Part shown: positions 18,501 to 27,500 of the stretch, piece after piece
Numbering within the stretch: position 1 is the stretch's first letter
How the letters are laid out: every line of letters starts with the position of its first letter
DNA from: Rhabdothermincola salaria
GTDB lineage: Bacteria; Actinomycetota; Acidimicrobiia; Acidimicrobiales; Acidimicrobilacustridaceae
DNA: 64,000 nt
Assembly (NCBI RefSeq): GCF_021246445.1
Contig: NZ_JAJQXW010000005.1
Span: 1-64,000 of the forward strand
Direction: 5' to 3'
Position numbers: made by a program

Positions 18501-21500
18501 CGCAGCATCGTCGGGCTGCTGGTCGACGTCGGACGGGGCCGTCGCCGCGCCGGTCAGGTGGCGGGCATCCGCCGGGCGGGCGACCGGGCCGGGGTGCCCA
18601 CCGTGGCCCCGCCGCACGGCCTGTGCCTGTGGGAGGTGGGGTACCCGGCGCTCGGCGCGCCGACCTCCGACCCCCGAGGGCCCCGGCCCTGACCGCCCCG
18701 ACCGGCCACCGGAGTTGCCCGGTGACGAGGAGCCCCGGTACGATTGCCCGCTGCTCTGGCGCGCGCCGAAGGGTCATCCGTGCGCTGCGTCAGACCCGTC
18801 TCGAAGCACTCCACGAAAGCAAGGGCTTGCGCGTGCGCACCTACACCCCCAAGGCCAGCGAGATCCAGCGCGACTGGCACGTCATCGACGCCGAGGGCAT
18901 GGTCCTCGGTCGCCTCGCCACCGAGGTGGCCAGCCTCCTGCGCGGCAAGCACAAGCCGACCTACACCCCCCACCTCGACACCGGCGACCACGTCATCGTG
19001 GTCAACGCCGACAAGATCGTCCTCACCTCCAACAAGGGCGAGCGCCAGATGGTGCACCGCCACTCGGGGTACCCGGGCGGTCTGCGCACGCAGACCTACG
19101 GCAACCTCATGGCCAACAAGCCCGAGGAAGCCGTCCGCCGGGCCGTGCGCGGCATGCTCCCGAAGAACCGCCTCGGTCGTCAGATGATCCGCAAGCTCAA
19201 GGTCTACGCGGGGCCGAACCATCCCCACGCCGCCCAGTCGCCCCAGTCGCTCGAGCTCGCCCGCGCCAAGGCCCGCTCGTAACCGCTCGCTGCAAGGAAC
19301 CCCCGATGTCGACTCCTCTCGTCCAGTCCACCGGTCGCCGCAAGCGTGCGGTCGCCCGTGTCAACCTCCGTCCCGGCTCCGGGACCATCACGGTCAACAA
19401 GCGCTCGGTCGACGAGTACTTCCCGACCCCGACCCACCGGATGATCCTCACCGAGCCGTTGCGCCTCACCGAGCTCTCCGAGACCTACGACGTCGACTGC
19501 CGCATCGACGGCGGCGGGGCCTCCGGGCAGGCGGGCGCGCTGCGTCACGCCATCGCCCGGGCGCTCATCGAGGTCGACCCCGAGCTGCGCCCGGAGCTCA
19601 AGAAGGCCGGCTTCCTCACCCGCGACGATCGCAAGAAGGAATCCAAGAAGTACGGCCTCAAGAAGGCCCGCAAGGCTCCGCAGTACTCCAAGCGCTGAGC
19701 CGGCCGGTCGCTCCGGCCTCGAGGCCGCGACCGACCCTGCCGTCACCACCGACGTGCGCCTCCCTGTCGGGACGGCGCACGTCGGCGTTTTGGTCCCCTG
19801 GGTGCGCCACGATCGAGCAAGGAGAAGTCGTCGATGACGTTGCGGTTCGGGACCGACGGGGTGCGCGGCCGCGCCGATGAGCTCACCGACGAGCTGGTGG
19901 TCGCACTCGGCCAGGCCGCCGCCGAGGTGCTCGGCGCCGACGCCATGGTGGTGGGTCGCGACACCCGGGCCTCGGGTCCTCGGCTCGAGGCGGCCCTGGC
20001 GGAGGGGGCGCGCGCCGCAGGGGTCGAGCCGATCGGCCTCGGGGTCGTGCCCACGCCGACGGTGGCCTGGGAGAGCGCCCGCTCGGGTCGCACCGGTGCG
20101 GTGATCTCCGCATCGCACAACCCCTGGACCGACAACGGCATCAAGTTCTTCGCACCCGGCGGGCGCAAGCTCTCCGACGAGCTGGAGGAGCGCCTGGAGG
20201 CCCGCCTCGACGAGCTCGTGGCCATCGCCGCGCCACTTCCGACAGGGATGGTCGAACCGGCGGGTGATCCCTCGGTGGGCACGGCCTGGGCCGAGGCCCT
20301 CCGGGCGACCGTGCCGGCCGACGCCCTGCGCGGCATGAAGGTCGTCGTCGACTGTGCCAACGGGGCGTCGTCGGCGCTGGCGCCCGGCGTCCTGCGGGAC
20401 CTGGGCTGCGATCTGGTGGTGCTGCACGACTCGCCGGATGGCACCAACATCAACGACGGATGCGGCTCCACCCACCCGGGGGACCTGCAGGCCGCGGTGG
20501 TGGAGCACGGGGCGGATGTCGGGCTGGCCTTCGACGGCGACGCCGACCGGGTGCTGGCCGTGGACGAGCGGGGCGCCCTGGTCGACGGCGACCACCTCAT
20601 CGCCCTGTTCGCCCTCGATCTCCAGGACCGGGGCCGACTGGCCCAGGACCACGTCGTCGTGACGGTGATGACCAACCTCGGCTTCCGCCACGCCATGTCG
20701 AGCGCGGGCATCGAGGTGGTCGAAACGCCGGTGGGCGACCGCCACGTGTTGGAGGCCCTGCAACGCGGCGGCTGGTCGCTGGGCGGCGAGCAGTCCGGCC
20801 ACATCGTCTTCGCCGACCTGGCCACCACGGGCGACGGCCTGCTCTCGGGGCTCCAGCTGCTCGATCTCCTCCGTCGCTCCGGACGGCCTCTCTCCGAGCT
20901 GGCGGCGCAGGTGATGACCCGGCTGCCGCAGGTGCTGGTCAACGTGGCGGTCGACCAGCGTCGCCCCGACATCGCCGACCTGGTCGCCGACGCGGTGGCG
21001 GCCGAGGAGGCGGTGCTCGACGGCGCCGGCCGCATCCTGATCCGCCCCAGCGGCACCGAACCGCTCGTGCGGGTCATGGTCGAGGCCCCCTCGGCCGAGC
21101 AGGCCGAAGGCGTGGCCCAGCGCCTGGCCGCCGCCGTGGGCGCAGCCTGCGCCACGTAGACTCCACGGGTTCGCTTCGCCGTCCGGCAGCCGGGTGCATC
21201 CGTCGCCGGGACAACCCCAGGAGTCCGTCGGCCACATGTGCGGGATCATCGCCGTCGTCCGCCAACGATCCGATCGGACGCCGCCTGCGCCGGCGGAGGT
21301 CACCGACGCCCTCGACGCCGCCTCCCGCCACCTGGCCACCGCGCTCGAGCTCCCGGTCGATCGGGCCCTGATCGAGACGGTGGCGTCGGCCGGCCGGGCC
21401 GCCCACGATGCCGACCGCATCCTGCGAGGGGTTCCCGGCGTGGTCGCCCTGCTGGGCTCGGCCGACCTGGCGGCGACGGTGGAGAACCTCGCCGACGGCC

Positions 21501-24500: not shown

Positions 24501-27500
24501 TCGAGGACGACCTGCCCCTGCCCGTGCTGCGGTCGGTGCTGCAGGGCTACCGGAACCGCTACGCCGCCATCAAGCACGCCGTCACCGAGACCGAGCCCGT
24601 CTTCCGCGACGACCTGCTCGTCACCGTGCCCGTGGTCGACCTCATGACCGAACCGGTGAACGACCTCGCCGACCGCTGGCGGCCATGACCGTCGCCGATC
24701 GGACCCCGGTTCCTGGTGAGGTCGGGGGAGCGCGGCGGTGATCGTGGGCATCGGGGTCGACGTCGTCGACCTCGAGCGCTTCGGGGTGGTCCTGGCCCGC
24801 CGGCCCGCCATGGTCGAGCGGCTGTTCACGCCGGCCGAGCGTGAGTACGCGGAGCGCCGCCGCGACCCGGTCGAGCGCTACGCCGTGCGCTTCGCCGCCA
24901 AGGAGGCCGTCCTCAAAGCCCTGGGCGTGGGCATCGGATCGGTGGGCTGGCACGACATCGAGGTGCGCCGCGACGACGACGGTCGGCCGTCGGTCGTGCT
25001 GTCGGGAGCCGCCGCCGACAAAGCCGCCGAGGCCGGGGTCACCCGCTGGCAGGTGTCGTTGACCCACACCGACCTGGTGGCCCAGGCGACGGTGCTGGCC
25101 CAGGGCGCGCCGGCGGCGGACGTCGCATCCGGGCCGGAGGCCCCCACGGCCCCGAGGGGCGCCGCCCACGAGGCCCGCTCGCCCGGGCCCACCGTCGGGT
25201 CGTCCGGCGCCGGAGCCGATGGCGGGCAGGACGGCGCGTCGTTCGCCGTCGACGGCCTCCCCGTCGACGGTGGGTTGGTCCCCATCGTCACGCCCGAGGA
25301 GATGGGGGCCATCGACCGGTCCGCCCCCGAGCCGGTGAAGGTGCTCATCGGCCGGGCGGGTGGGGCGGTCGCTGGTGCTGCGCGCCGGCTGCTCGGTGGC
25401 ACCTACGGACGGCGGGTCGTGGTCCTCGAGGGCAAGGGCAACAACGGCAATGACGGTCGCGAGGCCGCCCGGCGCCTGCGCAGTTGGGGGGTGCGGGTCC
25501 TCGAGCTCGACGTGGCCAGCGCGCCCGGGCGCCTGCCCGACGCCGACCTCGTCATCGATGCCGCGTTCGGCACCGGGTTCCGTGGCGGCTTCCGGGCCCC
25601 GGTCGCGGCCGCGGGAGCGGCCGTCCTCGCCGTCGACATCCCGTCGGGAGTCGACGGTCTCACCGGCGCGCCCAGCGAGCGGGTGCTGGCGGCCGATGCC
25701 ACCCTCACCTTCGCCGCCCTCAAGCCCGGCCTGGTGCTGCCCCCCGGCTCGGAGCTGGCCGGTCGGGTGGAGGTGGCCGACATCGGCCTCGACGTGTCGG
25801 GGGCCCGGGCCCACCTCGTCGGGGCCGCGGCCGTGGCCGGATGGCTCCCCGACGTGCCCGCCACCGGCCACAAGTGGCAGCGGGCCGTGTGGATCGTGGC
25901 CGGCAGCCCGGGGATGGCGGGTGCCGCCGCCCTCTGCGCCGGGGGCGCGGCCCGCGCCGGCGCCGGCTACGTGCGCCTCTCCACCCCCGGGGGTCACCCG
26001 GCCGGCGCGCCGGTGGAGGCCGTGCTCGGCGACCTGCCGGCCTCGGGGTGGGGTGGCGAGGTGCTCGGCGACCTCGACCGCTTCGCCGCCGTGGTCGTCG
26101 GCAACGGGCTGGGGACCTCGCCCGAGATGCGAGCCGAGATCCGATCGGTCGTGGCGGGGGCTGCGGCGCAGGGTGTCCCCACCGTGGTCGACGCCGACGG
26201 GCTGACCGCCCTCGGATCCGACGCCGGGGAGCTGGTGGGCCCGGCCACGGTCCTCACCCCTCACGACGGCGAGTTCGCCCGACTGGCAGGGGAGGCCCCC
26301 GGCGCCGACCGGCTGGCGTCGGCCCGAGCGCTGGCCGAACGAACCGGTGCCGTGGTGCTGCTCAAGGGGCCCTCCACCGTCGTGGCCCACCCCGACGGGC
26401 GGGTCCTGGTCACCACCACCGGTGACCAGCGACTGGCCACCGCCGGCACCGGCGACGTGCTCGCCGGGGTCGTCGGCGCACTCATGGCCCAGGGCCTCGA
26501 TCCGTGGCGGGCCGCGGCGGCCGGCTCGTTCCTCCACGGGCTCGCCGGCGCCCTAGGCTGGCCTCGCGGCCTGGTCGCCGGGGATCTCCCCGCCGCCCTG
26601 CCGGCCGCCATCGCCGAGGTCGCGGCGCTGCGCCCCTAGACCTGGACGACCGTCGTCACCGGAGGACCGATGCTGCTGCGAGACACGCCCGTGCGCGACC
26701 TGATGGTCACCGAGGTGCTCACCTTCCGCCCGGCGGACAACGTCCAGGACGCCATGCGGGCGCTCGTCCTGCGCGACATCGACGGGGCTCCCGTGCTCGA
26801 CGACGACGGCCGGGTGGTGGGGGTGCTCTCCACCGCCGACCTGATCGTGGAGGAGTCCCGGATCCCGCTCCCCGCGGTCATCACGCTGCTCGGCGCGGTG
26901 TTGGAGCTCCCGTCGTCCAGGCGACGCTACGAGGAGACGCTCGAGAAGGCCCTCGGGGCCACGGTGGGCGAGGTGATGGCCGACGACGACGTGGTGACCA
27001 TCGGCCCCGACGAGACCCTCGAGACGGCCGCCACGGTCATGCACGATCGCGATGTGTCGCGTCTGCCCGTCGTCGACCACGACGGGGTCCTCGTCGGCTT
27101 GCTGGCGCGAGGCGACATCGTGCGGGCCATCGTCCGCGACGCCGACGCCAGGGGGACGACCAGCCCGACCGAGGGCTGAGAGCGGTGCGCGCCACGCGGG
27201 CCGACGTCGACCTCGGTGCCATCGCCCACAACGTGGGGGTGCTCAAGGGGCTGGTCGCCCCGGCCGCGGTGTGCGCGGTGGTCAAAGCCGACGGCTACGG
27301 GCACGGGGCCATCGCCGTCAGCCGGGCGGCGCTGGCCGCCGGGGCGGACTGGTTGGCGGTCGCCCTGGTGGAGGAGGGCGTCGTTCTGCGCCGCTCCGAG
27401 ATCGACGCCCCGGTGCTGTTGCTCTCCCAGCCCCGCCTCGACGACATCGCCGCCGCCGTGCGCTTCGATCTGCGGGTGTGCGTCTACACGCCGGAGGCGG

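Follow-up and report, generated by a model that had tools for sequence, protein, structure and literature searches.

The double-length gene between glmM and acpS in the window (the whole 64,000-nucleotide stretch analysed, positions 1 to 64,000 of Rhabdothermincola salaria contig NZ_JAJQXW010000005.1) very probably encodes glutamine:fructose-6-phosphate amidotransferase (GlmS, EC 2.6.1.16), judging from its conserved residues, its position and the logic of the pathway, and on the same grounds its catalysis is most likely that of classical GlmS. Taken as a whole, the explanation that we consider likely is that this gene is the cell's GlmS in a double-length form, with classical catalysis and with added modules that would control the lid or the assembly of the enzyme. 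This double-length GlmS is widely conserved; our literature search found no paper on such a form.

The open reading frame proved real, and the figures in the survey's finding were reproduced: 1150 residues beginning MCGIIAV, Pfam matches to GATase_6 (residues 261–397) and SIS (residues 527–657), a TIGR01135 match, and alignment of residues 265–828 with residues 69–590 of E. coli GlmS (PDB 1jxa, E 1.7e-23). Its GC content was that of the neighbouring genes (72–76%). The protein scored under the cut-offs of both curated NCBIfam GlmS models (TIGR01135, 231.5 bits, cut-off 418.05; NF001484, 247.4 bits, cut-off 381) and was about 30% identical to canonical GlmS. When TIGR01135 was run over the whole genome, which is 97.8% complete, the top match (224.4 bits, C5:21995-23719) lay in this gene and the two others, at 89.7 and 24.9 bits, were purF (TIGR01134, 505 bits) and a PGI/PMI isomerase, bearing out the claim that the long form is the only GlmS-like gene of the genome.

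Table 1. Features of the long-form glmS locus (positions in the window; residues of the long-form protein)
Feature	Residues	Position	Strand	Basis
glmM (phosphoglucosamine mutase), next pathway enzyme, directly upstream		19834..21159	+	TIGR01455 506.3 bits, cut-off 447.55
glmM-glmS spacer, 76 nt		21160..21235	+	Sequence
Long-form GlmS open reading frame		21236-24688	+	Translation: 1150 aa and stop codon, no internal stops
Met-Cys start, N-terminal nucleophile strand of glutaminase domain	1-12	21236..21271	+	Cys invariance
Insert 1, Ala/Leu-rich	13-158	21272..21709	+	No counterpart in canonical GlmS
Retained GlmS segment	159-189	21710..21802	+	Weak HMMER stretch to E. coli 12-37; MAFFT alignment
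Insert 2 region	190-260	21803..22015	+	44-83 aa vs 23-26 in canonical GlmS
Remaining glutaminase domain	261-410	22016..22465	+	Pfam GATase_6 261-397
Interdomain linker	411-470	22466..22645	+	About 20 aa longer than canonical
Isomerase domain, two SIS halves	471-828	22646..23719	+	Pfam SIS 527-657; 1jxa alignment to residue 590
Insert 3, last isomerase helix to C-tail	829-935	23720..24040	+	95-132 aa vs 4 in canonical
Retained GlmS C-tail LTRPIDAIKHQAKTVTVGI, internal	936-954	24041..24097	+	Alignment; fixed 19-aa length
C-terminal domain	955-1150	24098..24685	+	Conserved module at long-form GlmS end
acpS fused to NAD(P)H-hydrate repair enzyme, downstream		24738..26639	+	Pfam ACPS, YjeF_N, Carb_kinase

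By alignment with the E. coli and canonical Acidimicrobiia enzymes, the long form comprises an entire GlmS and four additions: insert 1 (146 residues), insert 2 (about 47 extra residues), insert 3 (about 105 residues) and a C-terminal domain (196 residues). When residues and lengths were compared between 39 long forms from several phyla and 16 canonical sequences, every one of the 39 long forms had all four additions and the fixed 19-residue tail. The survey's finding had spoken of a ~250-residue insert and a ~320-residue C-terminal extension. The former resolved into a 146-residue insert (13–158), a retained segment (159–189) and a second, smaller insert, and the latter holds the GlmS C-tail motif at 936–954. 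Insert 1 spanned 100–155 residues in the long forms versus 0 in the canonical sequences and was the least conserved of the additions (mean column identity 44%); its only PDB matches were to designed helical bundles (E 0.013–0.02), and it is probably helical. Insert 3, with a mean column identity of 60% and only apolipoprotein-type PDB matches (E 0.1), is probably helical as well. A conserved motif, KAAAEIGELGDN, lay inside the insert 2 region, and the interdomain linker was 47–90 residues long in the long forms and 39 in the canonical sequences.

A check of 24 residues with catalytic, binding or motif roles (E. coli numbering: C1, R26, G27, D29, R73, W74, H86, N98, G99, D123, T302, S347, Q348, S349, T352, V399, S401, K403, E481, K485, E488, H504, A602 and K603) showed every one of them to be invariant in the 39 long forms. 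We take R26, R73, W74, H86, N98, G99 and D123 of E. coli GlmS to be glutamine-site and channel residues. The N-terminal Cys was invariant also in 16 of 16 canonical sequences, and the N-terminus read M/V/L-CG[IV] at all 20 diverse long-form loci. The Arg26, Gly27 and Asp29 region corresponds to RLEVRGRDSAG (residues 169–179), and the equivalents of Arg73, Trp74, His86, Asn98, Gly99 and Asp123 fell in a glutaminase domain with the motifs HTRWAS, NAHP, LNGDVDN and TTDAKV. Those of Ser347, Gln348, Ser349, Thr352, Lys485, Glu488 and His504 fell in an isomerase domain with SQSGTT, VASTKA, E..RIKLSE and KKH; here the phosphate-binding motif SQSGET reads SQSGTT, with S347, Q348, S349 and T352 kept. 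Excerpts of one paper (PMC9272926) ascribe catalytic roles in GlmS to Cys1, Glu488, His504 and Lys603, and the last three correspond to E728, H744 and K948, invariant across the long forms. Counting against a plain GlmS, family-wide changes adjoined active-site residues (T76S, H77V/N/I/M, K487S, and E608G with the chain continuing), and the long forms made up a separate deep clade on a branch 2.96 changes per site from canonical GlmS. The changes at T76, H77 and K487, the long branch, the HMM score below threshold and the identity of about 30% would suit a GlmS-derived amidotransferase that acts in another reaction or on another substrate, with GlcN6P obtained in some other way. We regard this as highly improbable, since the sugar-phosphate, glutamine and channel residues checked were all kept and a further change, S303A, was found also in 3 of the 16 canonical sequences. 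The genome content, distribution and gene order described below also argue against it.

The consumers of GlcN6P were present in the genome, namely glmM (506 bits), murA (512 bits) and a glmU. A NagB-type route, which the survey's finding had left as an alternative, was searched for in the genome and was absent: there was no nagB, because the only PF01182 match was pgl, and there was no nagA and no SIS-type deaminase, the sole other SIS protein being PGI/PMI. Among 151 Acidimicrobiia genomes at least 90% complete, with a TIGR01135 score over the cut-off taken as canonical, the long form occurred alone in 79, the canonical form alone in 71, neither in one (G022) and both in none, so that the two were complementary in 150 of the 151 and the strict alternation claimed from a smaller sample held. 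A separate search with the C-terminal domain of the long form matched exactly 79 of the 151 genomes and no canonical-glmS family, and therefore no genome of this sample has both forms. Outside the class, canonical glmS was absent from nine of the ten long-form genomes tested; G251, a genome with 5% contamination, carried the canonical gene and, on a different contig, the long form as well, and we count it against our explanation. The description of the long form as that of an Acidimicrobiia clade was too narrow, as the same architecture occurred in 11 genomes from other classes of the phylum and in genomes whose titles name Planctomycetota, Eremiobacterota/Xenobia/Vulcanimicrobiota, Riflebacteria, Desulfobacterales and Myxococcales. 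Its status as the only GlmS-like gene, its alternation with classical GlmS and the lack of a NagB route together make it very probable that the long form is the GlcN6P synthase of this genome, as the survey's finding had proposed.

Gene order pointed the same way. The upstream glmM carried four PGM_PMM Pfam domains, and a GGAG stood at 21220-21223, 12 nt ahead of the long-form ATG; no terminator-like site was detected on the + strand in 18000-27000. The order rpsI-glmM-long glmS was kept in 19 of 20 diverse long-form loci, most of which continued to acpS and alr. The acpS gene lay beside long-form glmS in 18 of the 20 loci examined, and beside canonical glmS in 14 of 30 loci with 1.5-kb flanks and in 10 of 10 with 4-kb flanks (the canonical contig of G251 included). 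Both forms thus fill one slot, glmM-[glmS]-acpS, which counts against an enzyme of another reaction.

The C-tail, LTRPIDAIKHQAKTVTVGI, aligned to E. coli ...DQPRNLAKSVTVE and to canonical Acidimicrobiia ...DKPRNLAKTVTVE; it contains the motif AKTVTV, in which Lys948 corresponds to E. coli Lys603, and the equivalents of Ala602 and Lys603 did not vary among the 39 long forms. Such a motif arose by chance in 24 of 200,000 shuffles of the same region. In place of the free C-terminus ...AK[ST]VTVE-COOH, the motif was followed in all 39 long forms by Gly and 197 further residues. The additions therefore do not replace the catalytic C-tail, as had been suggested; the tail, Lys603 equivalent included, persists as an internal loop. 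If catalysis is classical, Cys1, freed by removal of Met, would hydrolyse glutamine, ammonia would pass through a Trp74-gated channel to the isomerase site, Lys948, Glu728 and His744 would turn fructose-6-P into GlcN6P, and the adjoining GlmM would take this product on. The tail, a free lid in classical GlmS, here lies internally between insert 3 and the 196-residue C-terminal domain, and we infer that the co-inherited modules may act as one unit controlling lid closure or assembly state.

The C-terminal domain matched nothing in Pfam or NCBIfam and nothing significant in PDB, and sequence profiles gave no match to GAF. An exhaustive profile search with it returned 589 proteins; the best 150 of these were nearly all long forms of 1073–1277 residues with the domain at the C-terminus, or shorter pieces, with P0307 and P0358 as misfits to this pattern. 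A third SIS copy was rejected, as hhalign against the protein's own SIS halves gave probabilities of 0.26% and 0.07%. Many charged residues of the domain were invariant, including R977, D978, R1003, K1047, D1064, R1066, E1073 and E1118, and locally the domain bore a weak resemblance to the G2-G3 region of Der/EngA-type GTPases (PDB 2hjg, E 0.035; MMR_HSR1 in 3 of 21 members, E ~0.05; hhalign probability 38.8% over 42 columns). These two observations would fit a bifunctional protein in which GlmS is joined to another activity in the C-terminal domain, either catalytic or dependent on nucleotides (a degenerate GTPase-like fold, say, or an acetyltransferase), but we think this improbable. Every GTPase likeness was non-significant, and the P-loop GxxxxGK[ST] and the NKxD of a TRAFAC GTPase (Pfam MMR_HSR1) were absent from the domain consensus. 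The idea that the domain is the acetyltransferase half absent from the short GlmU of this order was rejected because short GlmU is an order-level trait seen alongside either GlmS form; long-form genomes of other orders had full-length GlmU.

We favor a regulatory role for the added modules of a classical GlmS, a reading that gains from the finding that none of the long-form genomes searched has a glmS ribozyme. An excerpt of PMC2258182 describes GlcN6P riboswitches as ribozymes that repress the downstream glmS. Positions 15000-30000 of the window gave no Rfam match, RF00234 included, with E values allowed up to 1. In a search of 150 genomes, RF00234 occurred in 60 of 71 with canonical glmS versus 0 of 78 with the long form, this genome included, and it lay directly upstream of canonical glmS in 14 of 14 loci scanned. 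The added modules may take over regulation, and if they control the lid or assembly, regulation would act at the level of the protein where the long-form gene is without the GlcN6P-sensing ribozyme. The ribozyme was missing also from 11 of 71 canonical-glmS genomes, so that long forms are not alone in lacking it, and the GlmR/YvcK regulator likewise did not track the GlmS form. Ribozyme loss with canonical glmS would also suit a GlcN6P synthase with purely architectural modules, serving oligomeric state, stability or localization and sensing no metabolite. The resemblance of inserts 1 and 3 to simple helical modules (E 0.013–0.1), the weak conservation of insert 1 and the lack of a ligand-binding family match for the C-terminal domain are in keeping with such modules, which are possible but to our mind rather unlikely. 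The C-terminal domain was conserved nearly as well as the first SIS half (mean column identity 68% versus 71%), has its many invariant charged residues, and is wired straight to the catalytic lid.

In common with bacterial GlmS (E. coli; PDB 1jxa, 2j6h and 4amv; TIGR01135), the long form has an N-terminal Cys nucleophile, a glutaminase domain, an isomerase domain of two SIS halves, the C-tail motif with its Schiff-base lysine, all residues checked, the slot beside glmM and presumably the pathway role. It differs in its length (1150 versus ~608 residues), its four additions, its internal rather than free C-tail, its low identity and score, its deep separate clade and the lack of a ribozyme in the genomes searched. 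Compared with the ribozyme-controlled canonical glmS of sister Acidimicrobiia, it occupies the same genomic slot and presumably carries out the same reaction, whereas feedback there is exerted by the upstream RNA. Eukaryotic GFAT1 and GFAT2 (PDB 6r4e and others) likewise have a GlmS core enlarged by extra sequence, and the isomerase part of the long form aligned to GFAT at E ~6e-21. The titles of PMC7000685 and PMC3224219 speak of feedback regulation and of regulation at the protein level by UDP-GlcNAc. GFAT, however, has about 680 residues and a free C-tail and lacks anything corresponding to inserts 1 and 3 or to the C-terminal domain; the extra parts of the two are without sequence similarity. 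GlmS-like SIS enzymes (NagB-II deaminase, PDB 8eol; isomerase-only paralogues) have the SIS fold in common with the long form but are missing both the Cys1 glutaminase domain and the C-tail, and matches to them scored far under those to GlmS; NF046059 gave 55 bits over residues 569–730.

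The open reading frame at 21236-24688 (+) has a stop-free translation of 1150 aa that begins with MCGIIAV. A GGAG lies 12 nt before its ATG, 76 nt separate the end of glmM from that ATG, and the GC content of the gene is equal to that of its neighbours; the long gene is real. On the protein Pfam detected GATase_6 (residues 261-397) and SIS (527-657) only, and both NCBIfam glmS models stayed below their cut-offs (TIGR01135, 231.5 versus 418.05; NF001484, 247.4 versus 381). The curated model thus misses the long form, which NCBI labels just 'SIS domain-containing protein'. In the PDB search, residues 265-828 aligned to chain 69-590 of E. 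coli GlmS (E 1.7e-23), with a weak additional pairing of residues 163-183 with E. coli 16-36. The survey's numbers were all reproduced, including its whole-genome TIGR01135 search, in which the two further matches are purF and a PGI/PMI isomerase. No Rfam RNA, RF00234 included, was found near the gene, and no promoter-like sites or + strand terminator-like sites were found around it.

In an alignment of 21 long forms, taken from different families, with E. coli GlmS and 10 canonical GlmS of the class Acidimicrobiia, the long-form protein is, as judged from its sequence, a complete GlmS plus additions.

Segments of the 1150-aa long-form protein
Segment	Residues (aa)	Remark
Cys1 strand	1-12	
Insert 1	13-158	
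Retained GlmS segment	159-189	with RLEVRGRDSAG (169-179)
Insert 2	190-260	44-83 aa versus 23-26 in canonical GlmS
Remainder of glutaminase domain	261-410	
Linker	411-470	exceeds the canonical GlmS linker by about 20 aa
Isomerase domain	471-828	
Insert 3	829-935	
Internal tail	936-954	LTRPIDAIKHQAKTVTVGI, aligned with canonical C-tail ...DKPRNLAKTVTVE
C-terminal domain	955-1150	196 aa

The survey had suggested that the additions replace the catalytic C-tail of GlmS; instead, the tail is kept as an internal stretch. Its hexapeptide was found in 39/39 long forms examined, and when residues 829-1150 were shuffled 200,000 times it arose in 24 cases; we conclude from this that the catalytic tail has been retained and is now internal. 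These 39 sequences, 21 from the class and 18 divergent (39-52% identity), were also checked at individual positions (E. coli numbering). C1, R26, G27, D29, R73, W74, H86, N98, G99 and D123 of the glutaminase part were invariant, as were T302, S347, Q348, S349, T352, V399, S401, K403, E481, K485, E488, H504, A602 and K603, so that no catalytic, binding or motif position checked varied. For these residues other than Cys1, Glu488, His504 and Lys603, the functional roles are those that we take them to have. Family-wide substitutions in the long forms were T76S, H77V/N/I/M, S303A (seen also in 3/16 canonical sequences), K487S and E608G, the chain running on beyond the last of these. Catalytic roles for Cys1, Glu488, His504 and Lys603 are given in PMC9272926.

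An alternative left unsearched by the survey was that GlcN6P is made by a NagB-type route. In the R. salaria assembly (97.8% complete, 7 contigs) we found glmM (506 bits), murA (512 bits) and one glmU-like gene, and no NagB or NagA route: the sole PF01182 match is a 6-phosphogluconolactonase adjoining transaldolase, and nagA was not found. The only other SIS protein is the PGI/PMI isomerase. Among the routes searched for, the long gene is thus the only visible source of GlcN6P. Its product is almost certainly, on this sequence evidence, the cell's GlcN6P synthase, with a predicted second, double-length architecture in which the catalytic lid is internal.

The gene lies in a conserved cluster that runs secY, adk, map, rpoA, truA, rplM, rpsI, glmM, long glmS, acpS/nnr, alr, tsaE, tsaB, rimI, tsaD, groEL. 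The downstream gene, at 24738-26639 (+), encodes 633 aa counted from the first start codon, with ACPS (aa 4-102) fused to an NAD(P)H-hydrate repair enzyme (YjeF_N + Carb_kinase). The order rpsI-glmM-long glmS was kept in 19/20 diverse long-form loci (the exception is L053), followed by acpS in 18/20 and alr in 15/20. At canonical loci with 1.5-kb flanks, glmM was adjacent in 21/30 and acpS in 14/30; with 4-kb flanks, rplM-rpsI-glmM-glmS-acpS was found in 8/9 further loci of the class, 7 of them also with alr, including families of the order to which R. salaria belongs. Canonical glmS and the long form occupy the same chromosomal slot.

The strict alternation of the two forms reported by the survey held when the sample was enlarged to 151 genomes of the class, each at least 90% complete: canonical glmS was present in 71 (649-816 bits), the long form only in 79, neither in one (G022), and both in none. 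A search with the long-form C-terminal domain matched exactly 79/151 genomes, with no family having the canonical form among them, and no family of the class mixed the two. The long form had been described as that of an Acidimicrobiia clade, which proved too narrow, as the domain occurred in 27/301 genomes of the phylum sample, 11 of them outside the class, and in other phyla by record titles. Nine of 10 long-form genomes tested outside the class lacked canonical glmS. Divergent long forms carry the NCBI names Candidatus Xenobia, Micrococcales and Planctomycetota, and a pattern scan of species genomes gave at least 596 long-form loci, with titles naming Vulcanimicrobiota/Eremiobacterota, Planctomycetota, Riflebacteria, Desulfobacterales, Myxococcales and many Acidimicrobiia. 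The only genome seen with both forms was G251 (loci L271, L272), from another class of the phylum; its canonical glmS is in the standard slot and its long gene on a different contig that lacks the usual neighbours, a combination that reflects either co-occurrence or a binning artefact (5% contamination, 360 contigs). Extra TIGR01135 matches in seven compared genomes (G023, G043, G103, G225, G251, G311, G322; 179-209 bits, frames of 392-883 aa) span only model positions ~250-602 and are isomerase-only GlmS-like paralogues, of which R. salaria has none.

In a quick single-gene tree of the columns of the common core, the long forms separated as a single clade, with an SH-aLRT of 100 and a branch length of 2.96 changes per site; 20 of the 21 from the class fell into one supported clade, and the Planctomycetota/Xenobia-type sequences branched deeper. 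If the tree of the neighbouring GlmM, a quick single-gene tree too, is taken to stand for the species phylogeny, eight changes of GlmS form are required, at least three of them forced by well-supported branches. The canonical genes within the group dominated by long forms clustered with other canonical GlmS of the class and not with those of other classes. These single-gene trees together suggest that the slot changed its occupant several times.

The two forms differed in their upstream RNA. The glmS ribozyme RF00234 lay directly upstream of canonical glmS in 14/14 loci scanned and in 0/4 long-form loci; genome-wide it was found in 60/150 genomes of the class, that is in 60/71 with canonical glmS and 0/78 with the long form. 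In many Acidimicrobiia (loci L011-L040; for example L012:1287-1443) its matches, of 51-111 bits, fall in the gap that separates glmM from canonical glmS; no paper on a glmS ribozyme in this group was found in the literature searched. Such ribozymes, activated by GlcN6P, repress the downstream glmS, according to PMC2258182. Because 11 canonical genomes, among them all canonical ones of the order of R. salaria, have no ribozyme, the long form is not alone in lacking one. The regulator GlmR/YvcK (TIGR01826, 102/151 genomes) did not track the GlmS form, being present or absent in both groups.

The added modules gave no Pfam, NCBIfam or significant PDB relative, and the ESM Atlas gave no named one. 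Across 21 diverse members, column identity averaged 44% in insert 1, 60% in insert 3 and 68% in the C-terminal domain; the SIS halves reached 71% and 80%. An exhaustive search with the C-terminal-domain profile yielded 589 proteins; the best 150 listed were, with few exceptions, long forms that carry the domain at the protein end, or fragments of them. A search for shorter copies returned only pieces of long forms, and of 10 short matches looked up, eight were on contigs of less than 4 kb and the other two were singletons from longer contigs (19.7 and 37 kb), which argues against a stand-alone or differently fused version. A third SIS copy was rejected for the domain (hhalign probability below 1%), as was duplication between inserts 1 and 3 (0.45%). 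The C-terminal domain resembles the G2-G3 region of Der-type GTPases weakly and locally, with the P-loop and NKxD motifs absent.

GlmS is an essential, drug-targeted textbook enzyme, and to our knowledge its architecture (some 600 aa, the lid free at the C-terminus) has been regarded as universal. A second architecture, predicted to do the same job, is present in about half of one bacterial class and several other phyla, in at least 596 species-level genomes by the pattern scan; in the literature searched, beyond which others may exist, we found no paper on it. Pathway reconstructions will wrongly score GlmS as missing in these bacteria, which are common in soil, freshwater, the sea and activated sludge. 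The best-supported guess for the additions is that they exert built-in control of the lid. A fuller reading, which we hold to be possible and rather doubtful as a whole, is that the C-terminal domain would be a metabolite sensor tethered to the lid, perhaps responding to GlcN6P, UDP-GlcNAc or a related signal, and would form with inserts 1 and 3 a clamp that opens and closes the sugar site and ammonia channel. Feedback on amino-sugar synthesis would then be located inside the enzyme itself, in a 'lid-on-a-leash' form swapped repeatedly in place with canonical glmS at the same slot. If the modules do regulate the lid, they would provide a third feedback route on GlcN6P synthesis, beside ribozyme/sRNA control and eukaryotic UDP-GlcNAc allostery, and a natural experiment in which a terminal catalytic peptide was turned into an internal loop.

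The GlmU of R. salaria (C1:1383630-1384688 (-), outside the window; locus L007:1468-2574), of 368 aa and with prs 36 nt after it, matched positions 2-344 of the 452 of the glmU model (353.8 bits, cut-off 366.85), and thus lacks roughly the final 100 residues of its acetyltransferase domain. We considered whether the C-terminal domain of the long form might be this missing half; the short GlmU was found in all genomes of the order that gave a match, with either GlmS type, and GlmU is full-length in the other orders, their long-form genomes included; both findings argue against the idea. One weak candidate for the acetyltransferase, an LbH protein that stands alone and resembles GlmU-C weakly, belongs to the NeuD/PglB type of sugar acetyltransferases and is encoded within a polysaccharide cluster.
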